This document shows positions 3,941-19,785 of a stretch of DNA of 33,470 bases, in pieces (within the stretch, counting starts at the first letter, position 1; every line of letters begins with the position of its first letter). Position numbers and translations under genes: made by a program. The notes below the pieces were generated by a model. It was not told where the DNA came from, ran no database searches, and was given only the letters and a program-made list of their open reading frames with translations. The DNA lies in the IMG/VR virus record IMGVR_UViG_3300011412_000014, positions 1 to 33,470 of that record. One strand, 5' to 3'. The stretch comes from a virus. Its lineage: Duplodnaviria; Caudoviricetes.

Positions 3941-4013
3941 TGCTCGAGAGTGAGCAATCCTGCCGTGCGGATCGAACGCACGCCCGGGCTGACCCGAGGA
4001 CCTTCGCAGGGAA
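3941..4013 (-). ncRNA. mini-tRNA-like intergenic element, copy B
   Basis: CCTGC-GAAGGTC(CTCGGG-TCAG-CCCGGG)-CGTGCG[TTCGATC]CGCACG-GCAGG, then TGCTC-N6-GAGCA hairpin. Confidence 0.75.
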
Positions 4014-4307: not shown

Positions 4308-4373
4308 GCTCCGGAGTGAGCAATCCTGCTGCACGGCTTGAACGTGCATGCCTGCCGGTGCAGGAAGGTGAGA
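4308..4373 (-). ncRNA. mini-tRNA-like intergenic element, copy C
   Basis: TCCTGC-ACCGGCAGGCA-TGCACG[TTCAAGC]CGTGCA-GCAGGA, then GCTC-N6-GAGC hairpin. Confidence 0.75.
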
Positions 4374-4586
4374 CTAGACGGGAATGGTCTCTCCCGCCGG
4401 AACGAACGGTGCGACGAACTTCTCAGCATAACGAATAGCGTCGTCCCTGGCCGGGAAAGTGTAAGTGCAAGGCAGGAACTCACCTGCGTCCGTGTCCATA
4501 AGGTTGACGTGATACCCATGCCGGCCACAGGTGACGACTGCAGCCACGCCTGTATCGGTGTTCTCAAGCCGGATGATTAAGGCCAT
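4374..4586 (-). CDS. hypothetical protein
   Basis: ATG at 4586 after GGAGG. Confidence 0.7.
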   Translation of the reverse strand: MALIIRLENTDTGVAAVVTCGRHGYHVNLMDTDAGEFLPCTYTFPARDDAIRYAEKFVAPFVPAGETIPV

Positions 4587-4608: not shown

Positions 4609-4675
4609 TGCCCACAGTTGGGCAATCCCGCCGCCGGGCTCGAACCGGCGTGCCTACCAGTGCGGGAAGGTGAGA
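4609..4675 (-). ncRNA. mini-tRNA-like intergenic element, copy D
   Basis: TCCCGC-ACTGGTAGGCA-CGCCGG[TTCGAGC]CCGGCG-GCGGGA, then TGCCC-N6-GGGCA hairpin. Confidence 0.75.
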
Positions 4676-4933
4676 CTAGACGCCGCTTTCCTCCGCAGCC
4701 ATCCAGGGCTGGTAAAACACGGGGAACTCATCCCGGTGAATGCCGAGACGCGGGTTCCGACTGTCGTCAATCCGGATGCCTTCTTCCTCTAAACGATCGG
4801 CCGCTGCCTGTTCCTCGCATTCGACTTCCCAGCAATGCTCACACTGCGGACCTTCATACTGCCCACTGTGAATGTGCCCGTGTGGCTTGCCGAACTCAAT
4901 TGTGCTGCATCCGCCACAAAACCAATGCTCCAT
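4676..4933 (-). CDS. hypothetical protein with CxxC motifs; first gene of the leftward operon
   Basis: ATG at 4933 after AAGGAGG. Confidence 0.65.
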   Translation of the reverse strand: MEHWFCGGCSTIEFGKPHGHIHSGQYEGPQCEHCWEVECEEQAAADRLEEEGIRIDDSRNPRLGIHRDEFPVFYQPWMAAEESGV

Positions 4934-6735: not shown

Positions 6736-8583
6736 CCATCCTCCAGGGTGACGCGCCGGCGATGCTCCGCACTCTGCCGGATGAGTGTGTCCACATGGTA
6801 GTCACGAGCCCGCCGTCAAACCCCGGCGCGGTTGAGTTCTTTACAACGCAGCCGGAGTGCGTCACAGCGGGCGATGTATTCGTCGGAGAGACATGTCACT
6901 GGGACCATTCGCACGGTGCCGTATTTGTTCGGGAAGTTCTTCTCACCGATGACTTTGGTCTTGTGTTGAAACCGGGTGGACTGAAGGGCGCGAAGCTCGA
7001 GTGTTTTCTCTGCCGATGCCCGCTTGACGCGCAGGTACGGCAGGACCGCCAGAATGGCTTTCTCGGCCAACAGGTCACTCGCCTGGTAGCAGTAGAGCGG
7101 GCGTCCATTCTTACAGTTGGGTTTCTCCCGGTAGTAGTTGCCACCCATCGTATCAGCGAGAAACCGGATGGCGGCTTCATCGACCATTCGGACTTGAATG
7201 CGGGCGTGGTAGCCTGGGGTAGCGCAGTCTTTTCGCACGGTGCTTTTCTTGATGCCGATGTAAGCCTCTCCATCCAGTAGCCCGGCGAGGTAGGCGATAT
7301 CTGTTTCTTTAATCAATGTATCCCTCCAAGTAGAGTATACATTACTACTGGTGGATTGTCTTGATATCTGAGAGGGGGTGGTCTTGTGGGGTGTGAAATC
7401 CTCATGGGGGACGCAGTACAGATGCTTCGCACGCTGCCGGATGAAAGCGTGCATTGTGTCGTGACTAGTCCCCCTTACTGACTGGGGCCTGCGGGACTAT
7501 GGAGTGTCGGGCCAACTCGGGCTGGAGGCCACGCCCGAGGAGCACATCCTGCGGTTGGTCGAGGTGTTTGCCGAGGTTCACCGGGTCTTGCGCTCGGATG
7601 GCACCCTCTGGCTGAACTACGGGGACTGCTATGCAACCGGGGCAGGTAAGGTCGGTGAACATCCTGGCGGTGGTGAGCAGGGAGAGCGGTGGAAGGGGTA
7701 CCGGGGCACGCGGGACGGCGCGCCCAAACACGCCGCTGGTGCGATGGGGCCGATGACCCAACCGAACCGGATGCCGCAGAAGGGGCTGAAGCCAAAGGAC
7801 CTGTGTATGATGCCGCACCGGGTCGCTCTCGCCCTTCAGGCGTGGGGCTGGTGGGTCCGCTCGGACATCGTGTGGCACAAACCGGCGCCGATGCCCGAAA
7901 GCGTGACCGACCGCCCTACCCGCAGCCACGAGTATGTCTTCCTGCTAACGAAAGCAGAGCGCTACTACTACGATGCCCAGGCTATCGCTGAGCCTTCCGT
8001 AGCGGGTCACGGAATTGGGAATGGCTATAAGAGACCTTCCCTGTTGTCCTACGCCGACAAGAATGGGGCCAGGGGAAATGATACTCCGTGGCAGCCCGGA
8101 GGCACCAGGAACCGCCGAACAGTGTGGACGATACCCACCCGCGCCTATAGCGGCGCTCATTTTGCGGTGATGCCTGTCGCACTGGTGGAGCCGTGCCTTC
8201 TTGCGGGCACCAGCGCCCACGGCGCCTGCCGTGCCTGTGGCGCTCCGTTTACCCGGGTGGTGGAGAAGACAAGTGAGCAGCGGCAATCTGAATGGAATGG
8301 CAATGATCGCAAGAATGGCTGTCTTGCTGGGGGTGGTCACAAAGGACGAACGGGGCAATGGTTCGGTGAGGTAACGACCACCGGGTGGAAACAGGGGTGT
8401 GAATGTTGGCCGTGCGACCCCGCCCCGTGCGTGGTCCTGGATATTTTTTCCGGCAGCGGCACCGTCGGTGAAGTGGCGCTCCAGCACGGGCGGGACGCCA
8501 TCCTGATTGAGCTGAAGCCGGAGTACTGTACTCTCATCCGAAAGCGCCTGTCACGGGTGCAGCCGAAGCTGCTAGGGACTTGA
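6732..8583 (+). CDS. DNA methyltransferase (N4-C/N6-A, beta class), interrupted at the SPPY motif by a 664-bp insert (6817-7480)
   Basis: 5' part MTILQGDA..LPDECVHMVVTSPP plus T(6816) joins AC(7481) to give YWGLRDYG; body has DIVWHKP, HFAVMP and VLDIFSGSGT motifs. Confidence 0.85.
6816..7316 (-). CDS. LAGLIDADG homing endonuclease, antisense within the methyltransferase
   Basis: IAYLAGLLDGEAYIGI motif; LPYLRVKR; TTG start after GGAGG; AAGACA-N17-TATACT promoter upstream. Confidence 0.85.
   Translation of the reverse strand: MIKETDIAYLAGLLDGEAYIGIKKSTVRKDCATPGYHARIQVRMVDEAAIRFLADTMGGNYYREKPNCKNGRPLYCYQASDLLAEKAILAVLPYLRVKRASAEKTLELRALQSTRFQHKTKVIGEKNFPNKYGTVRMVPVTCLSDEYIARCDALRLRCKELNRAGV
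7386..7481 (+). other. recoded duplicate of the methyltransferase 5' end carried by the insert
   Basis: GTG-started MGCEILMGDAVQMLRTLPDESVHCVVTSPPY* with its own RBS-like GAGGGGGT. Confidence 0.85.
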
Positions 8584-8969: not shown

Positions 8970-9540
8970 CGATGTTCTGAAACGGCTGGTGATTTGCGAG
9001 CCGTCTACGATGCCTACGGGTTGTTGGGAATGGCCGGGGGCCAGGGCGAACGGATATGGGCGGGTCGGATTTGGCGGAAAGTGCGCTGTTGTGCATCGAC
9101 TGGTCTACGTGCATTTTGTCGGCCCGGTGCCGGACGGATTGGAGCTCGACCATCTCTGTCGTAATCGGTGCTGCGCTAACTTTGAGCATTTGGAGGCTGT
9201 TACCGGCAGAATGAACAAGCTTCGCGGTGTAAGCCCCTCCGCCCAGTGTGCCAGGAAGACTCATTGCAGTCGTGGACACGAGTTCAGTCCCGAGAATACT
9301 CGGGTGACGCCGCTTGGGAAGCGGTCTTGCCGGAAGTGCCATGTCATCCACAACACGGCGAACAGAAAGCGCAAGTGGAAACCGCCGCCTCCCCGGCAGC
9401 CCAAGACACACTGCCCGCATGGGCACGAACTGTCTGGAGATAATCTCATCAACGACGTGGTTGGTGGGCATCCGGCGCGGCGGTGCCGGACGTGCCGAAG
9501 GGAACAAGCTCGTCGTTCCGAAGCCAGGAGGCAATCGTGA
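8944..9540 (+). CDS. HNH homing endonuclease with C-terminal zinc-binding repeats
   Basis: GCWEWPG..GYG..HRLVY..LDHLCRNRCCANFEHLEAVT; two KTHC..GH..N..R.C..C repeats. Confidence 0.85.
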   Translation: MNPRKNTIDDVLKRLVICEPSTMPTGCWEWPGARANGYGRVGFGGKCAVVHRLVYVHFVGPVPDGLELDHLCRNRCCANFEHLEAVTGRMNKLRGVSPSAQCARKTHCSRGHEFSPENTRVTPLGKRSCRKCHVIHNTANRKRKWKPPPPRQPKTHCPHGHELSGDNLINDVVGGHPARRCRTCRREQARRSEARRQS

Positions 9541-10303
9541 CCTTTTTTTTGGCACCCACCAGGCGGACTGGCTGGCAAAAGTGACTGTCCCGCTGTTCGT
9601 CTCCCGGCGCCGGCTGATGGACCGGAAGACGCTGCCCAGAGCCACCTGTGACTGGTCGCTTGACAGTGGTGGCTTCTCCGAGCTCTCGCTTCACGGCGGC
9701 TGGAGCATCACCCCGAAGGAGTACGTGGCCGAGGTCAGGCGCTACCGGGAGGAGATTGGTCGATTGCTCTGGATGCCCACCATGGACTGGATGTGCGAGC
9801 CGCACATGACCGAAAGGACAGGGCTCTGTGTGGAAAGCCACCAGCGCCGCACGACCGAGAGCTACCTCACCCTGCGGGAGATGGCTCCCGACCTGCCGTG
9901 GGTGCCTGTCCTGCAGGGGTGGGAAGCGGACGACTACCTCCGCCACCGGCAGCAGTATGCGGATGTGGGCGTGGACCTGGAAGCTCTTCCGCTCGTGGGT
10001 CTGGGCAGCGTCTGCCGCAGGCAGCACACACTGGAAGCAGAAAGGATTGTCAGAAGCCTGAAGGGCCTGAAGCTCCACGGGTTCGGCGTGAAGCTGACCG
10101 GACTGGAGCGGTTCTCGGACGCATTGACCAGCGCGGACTCTCTGGCCTGGAGTATCCACGCTAGGAACCGCAAGCCGATGCTGCCCGGCTGCACGCACCG
10201 GAGCTGCTCCAGTTGCCGCCTCTGGGCACTGAAATGGCGCGAGAGTGTGGTAGCCAGGGTTCGGACGGCAGACAAGACGCCAAGACAGTTGGCGCTCTGG
10301 TGA
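9537..10303 (+). CDS. DpdA/TGT-like deazaguanine DNA modification protein; start out of frame at a T8 tract
   Basis: LDSGGFSEL, DWMCEP, PVLQGW, VGLGSVCRRQ, LHGFGVK and SADSLAWS motifs; AGGAGG+GTG at 9537 needs one more T to join the ORF. Confidence 0.75.
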
Positions 10304-12336: not shown

Positions 12337-12468
12337 GTATCCACGCTAGAATAATTTCGGGTGGCGATATGCACTAGAGAGGTAATGTCGTTACCCACAG
12401 AGGTGGATACTGGTCGCCACATCCAAGCTAGGTCGCACCCAGCACACCAGTGCGGTAGAAGCAGTAGA

Positions 12469-12541
12469 TCGGCGGTGGCCTAATGGCAAGGCGAAGGAGC
12501 GACGGCTCCCAGGATTGCGCGTTCGAGTCGCGTCCGCCGAT
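12469..12541 (+). ncRNA. tRNA-like RNA with no canonical anticodon loop
   Basis: 7-bp acceptor TCGGCGG/CCGCCGA; D arm GCCT-AATGGCA-AGGC; T arm GCGCG-TTCGAGT-CGCGT; middle arm GGAGC-GACG-GCTCC has a 4-nt loop; no encoded CCA. Confidence 0.75.
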
Positions 12542-12583
12542 TGTCCGGGTCCGGTCCTTTAAGCTCCCATGGTTTCCATAGCC

Positions 12584-13388: not shown

Positions 13389-14246
13389 ATGGCCTTCAAG
13401 TCGTCGCCTAGACCCACTCCAAGTACTCAGCAATCTCCCGCGCTCAGGCGCTTAATTGGCGACCCCGTGGTCCCCACGCCGGAGGTGCCGGAGAGCCCCT
13501 ACGACCGGATCGCCATCCTCCGGACGCGCTTGCGCCAGATTGTGAACCCCGACCGGCCCAGAGCGCAAACGGATTTCCGCTACTTCCTCCGCCATTGCTA
13601 TACGAAGGATGAAAGTAGGGCCGGCAAGGTTGCCCCGTTCCCCGACTGGCCGTTCCTGGACGAACTGTGCGATCACCTGATAACGGAGCGCCTCCTGTTC
13701 ATCGAGAAGGCCCGCCGCGTGATGGCCTCCTGGACCGTGTGCGCGTTCGATCTCTGGCTGATCGCGGGCGGGCAGGACCCCCGGTGGACACACCAGGAAA
13801 TTGATCTGTCCACGGGACAGTCGAGGGTGGTCCAAACCCTGATGTCCAGCACTGAGAACAGGCAGGTTGTCATTGTGGCCCGCAAAATGGAGGACCTGAG
13901 CGGATCAGCGTGGTATCTGTCGCAAAGAGTACAATTTATCTACGAAGAGTTTGAGCGTCGCGGGTTCAGAGAGCAGTTCTGGCCGGACTTTCCCAGGATT
14001 GATTTCTCGTTTGCCAGGGCAAGAGCCACCAATGGAGGGCAAATCGACTGCGTCCCACAGGGGAAAGATAGCAGCAGAGGGCCTGGAGCGACGGTTGTGC
14101 ACTTCGAGGAGGTCGCCTTTGCAAACCAGGTAAAGGAGACGATGGAGGGAACCTTACCTGTTTTACAAGGAGGCGGCCACTGCATAGCGATCACGACAGC
14201 CTCGGCCTCCTCGACCTGGTGTGTCAATTTGGTCAAAGGGCCTTAG
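13389..14246 (+). CDS. terL: terminase large subunit, N-terminal ATPase part
   Basis: IEKARRVMASW (Walker A-like), RG..ATVVHFEEVAF (Walker B), ITTAS (motif III). Confidence 0.8.
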   Translation: MAFKSSPRPTPSTQQSPALRRLIGDPVVPTPEVPESPYDRIAILRTRLRQIVNPDRPRAQTDFRYFLRHCYTKDESRAGKVAPFPDWPFLDELCDHLITERLLFIEKARRVMASWTVCAFDLWLIAGGQDPRWTHQEIDLSTGQSRVVQTLMSSTENRQVVIVARKMEDLSGSAWYLSQRVQFIYEEFERRGFREQFWPDFPRIDFSFARARATNGGQIDCVPQGKDSSRGPGATVVHFEEVAFANQVKETMEGTLPVLQGGGHCIAITTASASSTWCVNLVKGP

Positions 14247-14907
14247 TCTTTTCTCGGGGTCGCTTGAACCATTTCCCTCTGGGGACTGGCGGGGTAGTGA
14301 GCGCGTCTTCCAGGCTCCAACCTCTGGATAGTCGCCGCATTATCCCCGTGGGGTTGATGCCGATTTCGGCTCCCCACTGACTGAGATTTTGGGTTCGCCC
14401 ATTCAGGGTAAACTTGCGGTTGTAGTCAGGTCGGTTGTTGCTTTGCTCCAGCGGGGTGGCCCAGCGGCAGTTCTCCGGGCAATAGTGGGATTTGCCTCCG
14501 GCTATTCGGTCTATGCTGTGGCTTGGAGACGGGCAGGCTCCCATATCGTGAAGGAAGACCTCGAAGTTATCCCACTCGGGGCAGACACGGACGCCCGCAC
14601 CGCCATAGCTGACGAAGTCGGAGTTGTTCGGGTTGTTACATCGGTTTCGCATGTCTGTCCAGCGACGATATTCCGGGGTTTCGGTCTTTCCGTGGATTGC
14701 GTTGGCATGCCGACTGCATGTGGCGCACGATTGAGATACACCGCTCAATATTCGATGAAGCTCAACGATGTCAATTGAACCGCACGTGCAGGCCACTATG
14801 ACAAATCTTCGTCTCTTTCCGGAAGGGGGAGGTGCTGCAGCGAGGACGGTGCGCTTGCCAAAGGTTTGGCCTACAGGAATTTCGGGGAGTTTTGCCGAAC
14901 TTGCCAT
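14233..14907 (-). CDS. HNH-like homing endonuclease, antisense between the terminase halves
   Basis: CTCG, YRRWTDMRNRCNNPN..YGG.GVRVCPEW..F..DMG..SIDRI..YCPENCRWAT; AAGGAGG RBS. Confidence 0.85.
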   Translation of the reverse strand: MASSAKLPEIPVGQTFGKRTVLAAAPPPSGKRRRFVIVACTCGSIDIVELHRILSGVSQSCATCSRHANAIHGKTETPEYRRWTDMRNRCNNPNNSDFVSYGGAGVRVCPEWDNFEVFLHDMGACPSPSHSIDRIAGGKSHYCPENCRWATPLEQSNNRPDYNRKFTLNGRTQNLSQWGAEIGINPTGIMRRLSRGWSLEDALTTPPVPRGKWFKRPREKTKAL

Positions 14908-14992
14908 TGTTCTCGCGCCTCCTTTGCGCGTGGGCCAAGGTCCGGGCGGCTGTCACCGCGCCGGGCCAATTCTATAAGTAGATTGCTCCAAA

Positions 14993-15979
14993 GTGGTAGA
15001 AACTCCTCCAAATTCGGAACTGGAAGAGCGCAAACCTTCCTCTCCAATCTTGCGCCTCACCCGGAAAAAATCCGGGTGGTCTGTGTTGACAATTCCCTGG
15101 ACCGTGGTGCCCAACTATAATTATGAGGCAGCCTGCCAGGGGATGTCGCCTGAAGCGATCCGAATGGAATTGGAGATAGACTGGACAGCTTCCCGTGGCC
15201 TGAAGGTATACCCGGAGTTCAGCCGGGACAAGCACGTTGCCCTGGATAAGATCGAGGCGGATGTCGAAAGGCCGTTCTACATTGGCTGGGACTGGGCGAC
15301 TTGTCCTTCGGCTGTCATCACTCAAACGAACGCGTACGGCCAGTGGCTAATCCTGGATGCGGTCACAACAGGCGAGGATGAATCCAGAGAGGTGTATGAG
15401 TTCGGGATGCGCGTGGCGGACTTCCTGACCCAGAACTATGCGCTTCCAAACGGCATCGGGTTGGAGGATCTGCGAATGATCCATGTGGGCGACCCTGCCG
15501 GACAGGCGCGGCTGCCGAGGACGGGAGAGCGGCCGCAGGACACGCGCAGTTATTTCGAGATCATTCGCCGGGGGCTCGACGTGTTCGTGGGCGAGGATAT
15601 GCACGGTCGCCCGATCATTGAACGAAAGAAGGGGCTGGGCTGGAAGATCATCGCCGGTCAGGTGGGTATCCCGATCCGCCTGGAAAGTGTGCGCGCTCGG
15701 CTGACCACGAGCTTGAAGGACGGTGTTCCCGCACTGGTCGTGTCTCCGCAGGTGACATCAGTGATCGACGCATTTTCAGGCGGATACCATTATCACGCCT
15801 ACAACGATGGGTCGTACTCTCGCGATCCGGAGAAGAATTGGGAAGCGGACGTAATGGACGCTCTGGGCTACATCGCGACCCGCCTCTATCCTACGAGCAA
15901 GGTGCGAAAGACCGAAGAAGAGGACGAAGATTACGACCGGGGGCCGAGGGTGACCTCGGTTGCCGGCAGGCGTTACTAA
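14993..15979 (+). CDS. terL: terminase large subunit, C-terminal lid + RNase H-like nuclease part
   Basis: ELEIDW..G.KVYPEF..H, YIGWDW, GDPAG and DVMDALGY motifs. Confidence 0.8.
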   Translation: MVETPPNSELEERKPSSPILRLTRKKSGWSVLTIPWTVVPNYNYEAACQGMSPEAIRMELEIDWTASRGLKVYPEFSRDKHVALDKIEADVERPFYIGWDWATCPSAVITQTNAYGQWLILDAVTTGEDESREVYEFGMRVADFLTQNYALPNGIGLEDLRMIHVGDPAGQARLPRTGERPQDTRSYFEIIRRGLDVFVGEDMHGRPIIERKKGLGWKIIAGQVGIPIRLESVRARLTTSLKDGVPALVVSPQVTSVIDAFSGGYHYHAYNDGSYSRDPEKNWEADVMDALGYIATRLYPTSKVRKTEEEDEDYDRGPRVTSVAGRRY

Positions 15980-15992
15980 AGGAGAAATTTTG

Positions 15993-16586
15993 ATGACGAT
16001 CACGAATGACGAGGAGCTCAAGGCGGCGCAGATCACCGTGGCCGACCTGAACACGCAGATCCTGCGGCTCTCCGACCAGTCGCACGGGAGTGTGAGCCGG
16101 GAGGCGCTGGCCACCGATCGCAAGGGGGAGCTGGCAGCCATTGAAGCGGCGATCGAGGAGTACGAGCATCCGCACAAGAAGCACCCCGGCTCAAAGCACA
16201 AGGACGAAGAGAAGAAGCCGACCGCCAGGCACAAGAGCGACCACGAGAAGCGCTCCGAGGACGAGCCCCGGCTGGCCTCCACGAAGCCGGAGAAGGGCGC
16301 CCATCCGGACACGCACCCGGTAGCAAAACCGGGCATCCAGCACGGGAGAGGGGCTGACGGTGACACGGAGCCGAACCCAAACTTCCCGGGTGAAGCGATT
16401 GGCGAGCCGAGAAATCCGGGGACGCCTCGCCCGCCACTGGTGGTGACGAAGACCCAGGATGAGGACCGGCGGGCGATCCCGTCACCGATCACAACGCCTC
16501 CTCCGCCGCCTGACGCCCCGACCAGCCAGAACCCGAAAGGTAGGATCTGGACCCCCGAGTGGGAAAAGAAAGATAAAGATCCTTGA
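15993..16586 (+). CDS. hypothetical protein, coiled-coil N-terminus and Pro/Lys/His-rich tail
   Basis: AAAGGAG RBS; GC3-rich codon usage. Confidence 0.65.
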   Translation: MTITNDEELKAAQITVADLNTQILRLSDQSHGSVSREALATDRKGELAAIEAAIEEYEHPHKKHPGSKHKDEEKKPTARHKSDHEKRSEDEPRLASTKPEKGAHPDTHPVAKPGIQHGRGADGDTEPNPNFPGEAIGEPRNPGTPRPPLVVTKTQDEDRRAIPSPITTPPPPPDAPTSQNPKGRIWTPEWEKKDKDP

Positions 16587-17260
16587 TCTGGGCTGATTTT
16601 CGCCCCCTTCTTACCTCCTACCTGGTGCGGATTAGCCAGGGCGTTGCCCAAACCCCCGGTGGCATATGGCTGCCGGACGAGGCCAGGGACCGCCATTGGG
16701 AGGGGGAGATCCTGGCCGCGGGGCCGGGCATCCGCATCCCTTACGCGAAGGGCGAGCGCAGCGAGATGTGGTGCCTCGTGGGTGAGAGCGTAGTCTTCAA
16801 GCGGGAGCACCTGGAGGTGCTGGACGAGCGCGAGCGGTTGGGGATTGTCCATGACGAGGAACTACTGGCGGTAGCCTACCCGGACCGGCCTTCTCCCTGT
16901 AACGACTGGGTGATGATCCAGCCGGATGCGAAACAGGCGCGGGTGGGCCTGGTGGCGATTTCCGAGAAATACCGGGAAGCGCCCACCACCGGCCGGGTGG
17001 TGGGCGTGGGGCCGGGACGGCTTACGCTGGTTGGTTCCTTGCGCGGCACTCGCGCCACGGTGTATAAGATTGTGGGGACGGTGTTGGAAGTAGGGGACAG
17101 AGTTTACTGGGATGCGGCCACGGAAGTGGTGCAGATCGGCCGCGAAGCCGTGGAGTATTTCCTCATCAAAGCGAGTGACCTCGTAGCCTGGGAGGTGGAA
17201 TGTGCCGACCGTCAAAAAGATCAAGAACGGCAAGCTGACCGCCATGCACTTTCCTTATGA
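16583..17260 (+). CDS. groES: co-chaperonin GroES-like protein with two tandem domains
   Basis: RPL..YLVR...TPGGIWLPD..GEILAAGPG and P.NDWVMIQP..GRVVGVGPG..VGDRV..SDLVA. Confidence 0.8.
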   Translation: MIWADFRPLLTSYLVRISQGVAQTPGGIWLPDEARDRHWEGEILAAGPGIRIPYAKGERSEMWCLVGESVVFKREHLEVLDERERLGIVHDEELLAVAYPDRPSPCNDWVMIQPDAKQARVGLVAISEKYREAPTTGRVVGVGPGRLTLVGSLRGTRATVYKIVGTVLEVGDRVYWDAATEVVQIGREAVEYFLIKASDLVAWEVECADRQKDQERQADRHALSL

Positions 17261-17330
17261 CAAGGAAGGCATGAAAGATGCGGCGGCCGCGAAGAAGAAG
17301 ATGGCCGCGAAGAAGAAGAAAAAGATGTAG
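17202..17330 (+). CDS. small Lys-rich protein (42 aa), not in the ORF track
   Basis: GGAGGT RBS; MPTVKKIKNGKLTAMHFPYDKEGMKDAAAAKKKMAAKKKKKM. Confidence 0.65.
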   Translation: MPTVKKIKNGKLTAMHFPYDKEGMKDAAAAKKKMAAKKKKKM

Positions 17331-17361
17331 CGTCCGGGGCCTTTTGGCCCCGGACGTTTTT
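17331..17361 (+). terminator. Rho-independent terminator
   Basis: CGTCCGGGGCC-TTTT-GGCCCCGGACG-TTTTT. Confidence 0.85.
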
Positions 17362-17450
17362 AATCCCGCTGGTTGCTAGACGAGCCCCAGGCTTCGCCGC
17401 TGGACATCAATGTGTTTCAATCCCCAGCCACCACAGAGGGTGGCTGCAAA
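17356..17450 (-). CRISPR. CRISPR mini-array: one full repeat, one 35-bp spacer, one degenerate repeat
   Basis: 37-bp TTTGCAGCCACCCTCTGTGGTGGCTGGGGATTGAAAC (17414-17450, internal 8-bp hairpin, ATTGAAAC end); spacer 17379-17413 matches portal 17629-17663 at 30/35; remnant repeat TAGCAACCAGCGGGATTAAAAAC. Confidence 0.75.
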
Positions 17451-17508
17451 GAAGGCGCCTGCCGTTCCAGCGCTTAGTTTACCCGGTTAGGATCAAGAGA
17501 AAATCAAA

Positions 17509-19785
17509 TTGATACCACCTGAAGACCAGAGCGGATTTCCGCCCGAGATGCCGTTCATCCCGCCCGGCCCCCCGGCGATGATGCCGGGGGTGATGCCCCC
17601 GATGCCGGGGGTGGACGACGACGAGGAGGACGAGCCCCAGGCTTCGCCCCTGGATATTGACGTGCGGATGTCCCGGGACCGCCGGGAGAAGCTCGGGCGC
17701 ACCCTGGGTGATCTGGTCCGCCAGTATAAGCTGGAGACCCAGATGCGCCGGGAGGACGCGGCCGAGTGGCGGCGGGACTTTCGGGTAGCGCCCACCGGGG
17801 CGAATAACCGCTGGACTGGCTGTTCAGACCTGAACAGCAACCTCACCCACATCTTCTGCTCGTCGCATTCCACCCGTCTGAACACGCAGATCCTCCGCAC
17901 GGTCCCCCCGATCTCGGCGGTCACCAGGGATCCCGCCCTGATGGACCAGGTGGCGGATATCGACGCGGCGATGGCCTCCATCCTGGAAGAGACCAACTGG
18001 GAGGCGGAAGCCGCGAACTGCCACAACGACCTGCCGGTGGTGGGCACGGCATTCATTTGCGTGACTTATGAAAACGAGACCATCCGCCGTCCACGGGAGA
18101 TCGTGGATCACGACGAGGAAACAAGCTACGACCTGGTGCGCGCGGGTGTGGAGCCCGGCGACGCCCTGGTGTTGGGCCTTGGCACGGACGAGGAGGGCAG
18201 GCCGAAAACGAAGCTGGTCTGGGAGAACCGGACGGTAAGGTCCGGGGTCCGCATTCGGTTCATCCCCTGGGAGAATGGGCTCATCTTCCCCACCACCATC
18301 GAGCGACCCGAGGAGGCCTACTGCATCGGGGAGCGCAAGCGCATCCGGGGCAGCGACCTCTTGAAGGGAGCCCGCGAGGGGGTCTATCTCCGGGACGCCG
18401 TGGACAAACTGCTGGAGCGCCCCGGCGACCCGCTGCCGGAGGAACGGCAGGAGACGCTCTCCGACCAGGGGGTGGATAGCAGCCCGTTCAACCAGCACGA
18501 CGAGGACCACCTGTACGCGGAGTATGAGTGCTACGACCTTTGCTACCTGATGGACGCGAACGGGGACCGGGAGATGGAGTGGACGGTGGTGACGGTCCAC
18601 GAGGCCACGGACTGCATCCTCCGCCACAAGTTCCTCCCGTATGAGCATGGGATGCCGTACTACAACTTGATGCGGTATGAGGAATTGCCCGGTCAGATCT
18701 GGGGGTTTTCGATCGCGGAGAAGATTTCCACCTACCAGAAAGCCGACGCCGCGATCCAGTGCGCGCTGGCTGATCTCGCGGACCTGTCCCTGAACGTCAG
18801 CGGCAACTTCTTCTACGACACCACGAGCGGGTTAGACCCGGCGAAGATCAAGCTGCGCCTCGCGGAGCCGATCGAGGTGGACGACGTGCGGGGGATCCTG
18901 CCGTTCCCCCACCCGCAGTTCCCGAGCGATCACTATCAGCTCAGCGCTAAGCTCAAGGAGATGTGCGATTTGCTGACCGCCTCCTCCGACCCCACCATGG
19001 GCCGAACCTCCGAGGGCTCAAAAACCCTGGGCGAGATCCAGATCGTGGCCGGCGCCAATTCGATGGTTTTCGAGGAGCGCGCTTCTCAGGTTGCCCGGCA
19101 ATGGGCTCCGATTTTCGATCAGGTCAGGTTTTTAGAGGCGCAGTACGGCGGGACCGGCCCGCTGGTGCCGTACCGGATCTCCGCTGCTCCGGGGAAGTTC
19201 ATCCAGCAGGTGGACGGCACCAATGTTCCGGCGGCCATGGGTCCGATGGGGCAGCTTGTCCCCGCACCGAATGGCTCGATCCCTGGCTTCATTGACCGGG
19301 AACTGCTCAAGAGCAAGGTCGATCTGGTCCCCACCGGATTGACTCAGTTATCGGATATGCAGACCCGCATCAGCGTGGCCACGCAGGTCCAGGGAATGCT
19401 GCTTGCCAACCCGATCACCGGGCAGGACCCGAGAATTCTCGCCATGGCTCTTGATGTCGTGCTGCAAGCGGTCAGGTACCCCCGGAGAGAGGAGATGATG
19501 GCGCTGGTCCAGCAAAATGTTGACAAGCTAATCGGGATGGAGGCTGCTCAGCAGCAGGCCCAGGCGCTGATGGGCGAGGCGCTGCTTTCCGGACAGGCGC
19601 CGCCGGGAGGAGGGGGTCAAGCGCCGGGAGCGCCTGCCATTCCGGGCGCCAATGGCAGCGGCGGCCCGCCCGAGGCGCAGGGTCCACGCGGGTTCCCCCA
19701 AGGCGGCAGTAAAGGTACAGCCACGGGCGTGAACGGAACTCCGATGCCGAACCCGCCAAACGGGGGCAGAAAGCTGGCTACCTAG
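17509..19785 (+). CDS. portal protein
   Basis: 758 aa after terL; GTAFICV, WGFSIAE, MGRTS..KTLGEIQI motifs; low-complexity Q/P/G tail typical of podovirus portals. Confidence 0.8.
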   Translation: MIPPEDQSGFPPEMPFIPPGPPAMMPGVMPPMPGVDDDEEDEPQASPLDIDVRMSRDRREKLGRTLGDLVRQYKLETQMRREDAAEWRRDFRVAPTGANNRWTGCSDLNSNLTHIFCSSHSTRLNTQILRTVPPISAVTRDPALMDQVADIDAAMASILEETNWEAEAANCHNDLPVVGTAFICVTYENETIRRPREIVDHDEETSYDLVRAGVEPGDALVLGLGTDEEGRPKTKLVWENRTVRSGVRIRFIPWENGLIFPTTIERPEEAYCIGERKRIRGSDLLKGAREGVYLRDAVDKLLERPGDPLPEERQETLSDQGVDSSPFNQHDEDHLYAEYECYDLCYLMDANGDREMEWTVVTVHEATDCILRHKFLPYEHGMPYYNLMRYEELPGQIWGFSIAEKISTYQKADAAIQCALADLADLSLNVSGNFFYDTTSGLDPAKIKLRLAEPIEVDDVRGILPFPHPQFPSDHYQLSAKLKEMCDLLTASSDPTMGRTSEGSKTLGEIQIVAGANSMVFEERASQVARQWAPIFDQVRFLEAQYGGTGPLVPYRISAAPGKFIQQVDGTNVPAAMGPMGQLVPAPNGSIPGFIDRELLKSKVDLVPTGLTQLSDMQTRISVATQVQGMLLANPITGQDPRILAMALDVVLQAVRYPRREEMMALVQQNVDKLIGMEAAQQQAQALMGEALLSGQAPPGGGGQAPGAPAIPGANGSGGPPEAQGPRGFPQGGSKGTATGVNGTPMPNPPNGGRKLAT

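Follow-up and report, generated by a model that had tools for sequence, protein, structure and literature searches.

The stretch of DNA that we analysed, which we call the window, is the whole of the linear virus record IMGVR_UViG_3300011412_000014 in IMG/VR, 33,470 bases from a tailed phage (Duplodnaviria; Caudoviricetes) with an estimated completeness of 31%. It carries genes for a split terL, a GroES-like protein, a portal protein, a major capsid protein, a DNA methylase, DpdA and five HNH endonucleases. Matches to Pfam SU10_portal (E 1.4e-18) and to PHROG 1216 bear out the portal call. In the intergenic space before the portal gene there is, on the minus strand, a small unit made of one full repeat of the CRISPR kind, called R1 here, one spacer, and a degenerate second repeat, R2. 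We conclude that this unit is a real mini-array on a phage with no detected cas genes, that its spacer nearly matches the phage's own portal gene, and that it most likely serves as a weapon against sibling phages.

A first-pass annotation, made from the letters alone, had described a repeat, a spacer and a degenerate repeat on the minus strand, and the sequence and an alignment of the parts bear this out (Table 1). R1 is a hairpin repeat (z = -3.56 for the fold) that terminates in GGATTGAAAC, and its 11-nt tail ends ATTGAAAC. The 3' boundary of the spacer is ambiguous by one base, which makes it 34 or 35 nt long. In the alignment R2 keeps both ends of the repeat and is missing about 14 nt of the hairpin. 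Beyond R2 is a GC-rich hairpin whose plus-strand T run overlaps the R2 end. It is likely a bidirectional terminator and would end the minus-strand transcript of the array; a simple terminator scan did not pick it up. Scanning the window with a model built from the unit's two repeats gave no additional credible copy.

The stretch is present in 24 listed runs, mostly from sediment, and three of them contain at least half of the sampled words. No RNA dataset is among the listed runs that contain it. When we compared four runs, the contigs of two (X1 and X2, of which X1 may be the window's source) covered the unit without a differing letter, and X3 and X4 gave no cover over the array. No variant letters and no host-array contigs were listed for the four.

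Table 1. Positions of the mini-array, the site that it resembles, and related features. Positions are those of the window unless a contig is named.
Feature	Position	Strand	Remarks
R1, full 37-nt CRISPR-like repeat TTTGCAGCCACCCTCTGTGGTGGCTGGGGATTGAAAC	17414..17450	-	8-bp hairpin, 11-nt 3' tail GGGATTGAAAC
Spacer, 34-35 nt	17379/17380..17413	-	antisense to portal mRNA; variant portal peptide on plus strand
R2, degenerate trailer repeat without hairpin	17356..17379	-	from alignment; fold -0.6 kcal/mol
Hairpin, 12 bp, GC-rich, T-rich runs on both strands	17330..17357		-27.9 kcal/mol, z -6.63
Putative short leader	17451..17508	-	TAAACT hexamer at 17481-17476, possible -10, read by eye
Own protospacer-like site in portal gene	17629..17663	-	30/35 to spacer, 250 bp from spacer
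Position of the protospacer adjacent motif (PAM) at the own site	17664..17666	-	CGC, not TTC
Portal gene	17509..19785	+	758 aa; TTG start common to sibling L015
Lysine-rich open reading frame (ORF), 42 aa, upstream of unit, not part of array	17202..17330	+	kept in L015
Solitary repeat, cellular contig L010	507-543	+	17 nt behind a 12/12 TTGACA-17-TATAAT, 78 nt before rpsU
Solitary repeat, cellular contigs L013 and L012	L013:1860-1896, L012:322-358	-	31 nt behind a 12/12 match, 96 nt before cspA, infA beyond

The match between the spacer and the carrier's own portal gene that had been claimed for 17629-17663 stands, and it is far above chance: 300 shuffled spacers reached at most 24/35, and none of 500 random 35-mers from the window had a non-self match of at least 30 (the maximum was 28). 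The five mismatches fall where the first-pass annotation had put them, at positions 3, 5, 6, 9 and 15 of the CRISPR RNA (crRNA), which correspond to codon positions 3, 3, 3, 1 and 3. Four of five at third codon positions has P = 0.045, and five of five within the PAM-proximal 15 of 35 nt has P = 0.009. The remaining distal part is a run of 20 contiguous identical bases. Translated, the spacer reads DEPQASPLDIN and the carrier's own site DEPQASPLDID. By simple arithmetic, a target would lie this close to the spacer by chance about 1.5% of the time in the window and about 0.5% of the time in a genome of the estimated size.

At the level of sequence, then, the carrier's orthologous site is altered in a self-avoiding way, with mismatches on the seed side and a CGC flank. 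The flank had been correctly given as CGC in place of TTC. It had also been said that a sibling reading GTG followed by AAR would present TTC; it would, although the restriction to AAR is too narrow, as any AAN codon (Lys or Asn) works. The carrier would escape its own guide through the seed mismatches and the non-TTC flank.

A rival explanation is that the antisense RNA regulates the carrier itself, lowering the expression of the portal gene either by base-pairing to its mRNA or through non-cutting binding of Cascade. The orientation is right for this, and the predicted RNA duplex of the guide with the carrier's portal mRNA has -61.8 kcal/mol, compared with -77.5 for a perfect match. Partial pairing is known from regulators that resemble crRNAs (Shmakov et al., bioRxiv 2023.03.03.530964; Cracr RNAs, bioRxiv 2024.10.29.618823). 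The unit is like those mini-arrays in having a full repeat, a spacer, a degenerate repeat and partial complementarity nearby. However, as described in the parts of the two preprints drawn on here, the regulatory mini-arrays are directed at promoters of cas or toxin genes, with an identical seed and a PAM, whereas the unit's target in the window is a phage coding region, 120 nt inside the portal gene, with seed mismatches and CGC in place of a PAM. Under a type III reading the carrier would not be protected: the handle pairs with only 2 of 8 bases of the flank. We consider self-regulation very unlikely.

To return to the repeat, BLAST of the unit led to a plasmid of Deinococcus aetherius that has arrays of 66 and 25 identical repeats, to which R1 is identical at 29/37 and 27/37 positions (29/37 is the best for any true array). 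The second array adjoins cas2 of a complete type I-C operon, both arrays are on the same replicon, and the cas2-adjacent one has a degenerate repeat at its trailer end, in the same polarity as R2. D. radiophilus has a similar array downstream of I-C genes. Four Deinococcus replicons were inspected, and I-C genes were found on two of them, a cas6/DevR operon on one, and no cas gene within 12 kb on one. The most common length of 90 Deinococcus spacers is 35, equal to that of the unit's 34-35 nt spacer. R1 itself has the structure of an I-C-type repeat, a hairpin and then a tail ending ATTGAAAC. Its structure and the Deinococcus arrays support the type I-like repeat that had been proposed. Because the cas context of the related arrays is mixed, we take the repeat to be likely type I, with I-C as the best guess for a subtype that is not proven.

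Other searches with the repeat gave little. Rfam returned no match at the gathering threshold, and R1 scored 18.7 bits against CRISPR-DR9 (RF01322), below the gathering score of 45. In BLAST of plasmids and phages with the bare repeat or the unit, only the Deinococcus array was meaningful. Four repeat patterns run on viral contigs found 1, 0, 1 and 0 loci; the contigs L003 and L005 had the same chance-type single match with the hairpin absent, and we rejected them. Two single matches in GTDB genomes were rejected as being of the chance type as well. The 90 Deinococcus spacers matched neither the window (best 24 identities) nor the phage collection, so no PAM could be derived from them. In B. 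halodurans the PAM of I-C is TTC (PMC7049708).

We believe that the unit is probably a one-spacer mini-array that borrows type I machinery (probably I-C) from the host and turns it against a co-infecting sibling phage while self is spared. Transcription on the minus strand would run from the putative leader to the GC-rich hairpin. A Cas5c-type nuclease of the host would cut R1 at the base of its hairpin and leave the 11-nt handle, the guide RNA would be loaded into Cascade, and Cas3 would destroy a sibling portal allele that reads D-I-N-V-(K/N) and has a TTC PAM. As R2 lacks a hairpin, termination or trimming would define the 3' end of the guide. The missing hairpin need not make R2 defective, since in the I-C Cascade structure the 5' handle is critical and the crRNA has no 3' stem-loop (PMC7684278). 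In an engineered I-C array, broken homology between the repeats gave better editing (PMC10758571), so the degenerate state of R2 may help to keep the spacer from being lost.

A near-self spacer beside its target has already been described for virus-borne mini-arrays, and the unit is a further example. The portogloboviruses SPV1 and SPV2 of Saccharolobus carry cas-less arrays of one or two spacers (Medvedeva et al. 2019, PMC6858448). Their spacers match each other at 100%, the orthologous site of the carrier has point changes or deletions, and the targets lie near the arrays, for reasons which the part of that paper used here calls unclear. Faure et al. 2019, as cited there, found spacers in phages that are directed at adjacent genes in related viruses, and near-self spacers are the usual case for viral mini-arrays according to the portion of PMC7099407 cited here. 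Both sources agree with the cas-less viral mini-array pattern that the first-pass annotation had recognised. The unit resembles the SPV1/SPV2 arrays and the phage mini-arrays of Faure et al. in being intergenic, in having one or two spacers and no cas genes (none was detected here), and in its near match to an own site with self-protecting point changes and a target close by or in the adjacent gene. It differs from those of SPV1 and SPV2 in its bacterial tailed phage, its type I-C-like repeat and its R2 without a hairpin; no host-like leader is shown, and no matching rival or host was found. If it is indeed directed at kin, a known strategy gains a type I-C-like example, carried by an uncultured phage from sediment. 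The unit is also a compact test case for the adjacency of guide and target, with the array, a relative with an empty site, and mobile HNH genes in one packaging module.

The relative is the only one that we found (L004/L015), with a portal 77% identical; searches of viral contigs by portal, by portal alignment and by GroES alignment returned no other. L015 keeps the small basic ORF, a terminator-like hairpin and the TTG start of the portal gene. It does not have the unit, and no copy of the repeat occurs within its 14.6 kb. The intergenic gap before the portal gene is 178 nt in the window and 59 nt in L015, and the unit therefore appears to be an insertion of about 120 nt, or to have been lost in L015.

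Free-standing homing endonucleases of phages, such as those of the T4 SegB/MobE type, sit beside a conserved essential gene and cut that gene in a relative, while the allele of the carrier differs. The mini-array could be a minimal element of this sort, of about 120 bp and encoding only a guide: host Cascade-Cas3 would be sent to the portal allele of the sibling, and during repair the array and the resistant allele would be copied in as one piece. In favour of this, 250 bp separate spacer and target, the place where the unit appears to be inserted is empty in L015, and the phage has five HNH genes, one of which splits terL here and has a 45% identical relative beside the intact terL of L015. 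In engineered systems, type I-C cutting in the presence of a donor leads to the precise replacement of genes (PMC10758571), and PMC6858448 reports the proximity of targets while calling its origin unclear. Unlike the SegB/MobE type, though, the unit has no nuclease of its own and would depend on the host's Cascade-Cas3; copying is a proposal only, and we saw no recipient allele and no conversion tract. Cas3 makes long deletions, reportedly unidirectional in one I-C system (PMC10758571, in the part cited here), which would favour destruction over conversion. The proximity is equally well explained if the guide and the immune allele must be inherited together. A cursory literature search found no paper on homing by mini-arrays. 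We judge it unlikely; were it true, it would explain why the targets of viral mini-arrays lie beside the array, which the literature has left open.

When siblings were sought at the protein level, the search gave three full-length relatives and no short N-terminal fragment, and the spacer peptide was in none of the proteins gathered (best 6/11). Our portal alignment comprised 78 of the 150 listed homologues together with L015, and 70 sequences had residues at the site. At the nonsynonymous position, the Asn of the spacer occurs in 14 of these 70 and the Asp of the carrier in two; Val followed by Lys or Asn, the pair able to give a TTC PAM, occurs in nine. At the silent positions the codons of the spacer have the higher shares among late genes (CCG 0.56, GAC 0.67 and ATC 0.75, against 0.26, 0.33 and 0.20 for those of the carrier). 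The carrier thus has the rarer state at all four changed codons (three silent ones and Asp), a weak hint that its allele may be the derived one, mutated away from the guide.

Several results weigh against a weapon aimed at siblings. The polarity of the alleles is only a hint because four of four in one direction is expected about 1 in 16 times by chance (arithmetic). No exact protospacer turned up: a codon-degenerate pattern run on viral contigs and a 24-nt pattern run on metagenome contigs each had 0 hits. Sibling targeting with self escape, as first proposed, keeps its seed-side mismatches and its non-TTC flank, but no perfectly matching sibling protospacer was found in these contigs. L004/L015 was tried as the target and ruled out, as the spacer matches it at 21/35. 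The proposed search for a host array fared similarly: similar Deinococcus arrays exist, at 29/37 or less, but a multi-repeat array with the unit's own repeat was found neither in GTDB genomes nor in metagenomes, where the nearest copies are solitary. In the part of PMC11656645 cited here, the repeats of mini-arrays are usually identical to those of the host, and the closest true array here is at only 29/37. The related array of D. gobiensis is near a cas6/DevR operon, and the subtype is thus unsure. A sigma-70 scan found no consensus promoter in the putative leader. R2 cannot form the hairpin, so the unit may be decaying. Cas families were absent from the 91 window ORFs that we scanned against NCBIfam (90 of the 160 listed ORFs of at least 70 aa and the 42-aa ORF) in a record that is about 31% complete, and cas or acr genes could lie beyond it.

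Some of these results would also suit a decoy or a relic, that is, a unit captured from a host array whose spacer has no live target and whose RNA soaks up Cas5c and Cas7 or is idle. The hairpin of R2 is lost, no target was found in viral or metagenome contigs, and the changes at the carrier's site fit escape from a host spacer as well as they fit escape from its own. A type I-C RNA anti-CRISPR (Racr), RacrIC1, is known (Camara-Wilpert et al. 2023, PMC10651486), and the unit is like such solitary repeat units in being phage-borne and intergenic with one intact repeat that has a hairpin and a handle. However, a Racr consists of a solitary repeat, and the rules of SRUFinder, as given in the part of that paper drawn on here, exclude units with a partial second repeat within 100 bp; R2 is 34-35 nt from R1. 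The unit also differs from them in its full-length spacer with a recognisable phage target, and no acr neighbour was identified. The handle is intact, the spacer matches the portal gene over its full length including the distal run of identities, and an R2 without a hairpin need not be defective given the I-C Cascade structure (PMC7684278). We regard the decoy or relic as rather unlikely, and prefer the weapon against siblings.

A scan of metagenomes for the repeat found five loci. One is the window's own record (L011), and the other four are cellular contigs with a single copy each. The copies before rpsU and cspA are the closest to R1 that we found, at 32/37 and 29/37, with a search pattern that forced the stem, and each comes directly after a promoter that agrees with the sigma-70 consensus at 12/12. 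They are oriented in the sense that Cas5c would cut, and the cspA-leader copy scores 27.4 bits against Rfam CRISPR-DR9. We found no array and no cas gene on the short contigs that carry them. Neither in the window (22/35) nor in the repeats' own loci (19/35) is there a match to the 35 nt that follow each solitary cellular repeat. We did not count the fourth contig, L009, as independent: its first 353 nt, which stop shortly beyond the repeat, are identical to L012 and L013, the rest is unrelated sequence, and it is probably a chimeric contig. The leader repeats could serve Cas5c-type processing or control of housekeeping mRNAs. If upheld, they would suggest that ordinary mRNAs are processed or controlled in a Cas-dependent way, which is maybe weightier than the array itself. 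A cursory literature search found no paper on solitary repeats in housekeeping leaders.

These copies bear on one more explanation, in which the unit has no CRISPR function and arose when portal sequence was duplicated locally, next to a hairpin element that the host lineage uses as a signal in 5' leaders. The closest copies of R1 are indeed solitary and in the rpsU and cspA leaders, not in arrays, and the CRISPR-DR9 score of R1 is far from the gathering score. Against this, the duplicated piece is exactly of spacer size with repeat-derived sequence on both sides, its differences are mostly at third codon positions and towards real portal homologues, and real arrays with 27/34 identity exist. 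We find a plain duplication highly improbable.

A separate solitary I-C-like repeat was found at L014:10000-10036 (+), 4 nt before an ATG, on an unrelated viral contig of 59 kb, and we note it as a candidate RNA anti-CRISPR.

The 42-aa ORF upstream of the unit matched no NCBIfam family, and its look-alikes in the Atlas are unnamed hypothetical proteins. The GroES-like protein (16583-17260) has two Cpn10 stretches, lies between the terminase and the portal gene, and is kept in L015. The terL gene (13389-15979) consists of two ORFs, separated by a gene for an HNH endonuclease at 14233-14907 that runs antisense to them; in L015 terL is an intact frame of 612 codons, and the HNH gene related to the one that splits it here is just upstream. 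DpdA, for 7-deazaguanine DNA modification, and the DNA methylase are at 9314-10303 and 7504-8583, and together they suggest a modified phage genome.

ARAGORN called a tRNA-like gene at 12468-12542 with the anticodon undetermined. It did not call a group of minus-strand repeats at 2759-2784, 3942-3981, 4308-4380 and 4610-4682 that resemble the T arm of a tRNA, with a stem of 5-6 bp and a TTCRANC loop. The longest two are in addition flanked by acceptor-like pairing and are located a short way before GGAGG...ATG starts. It is possible that these repeats are tRNA-like processing signals in the leaders of early genes.

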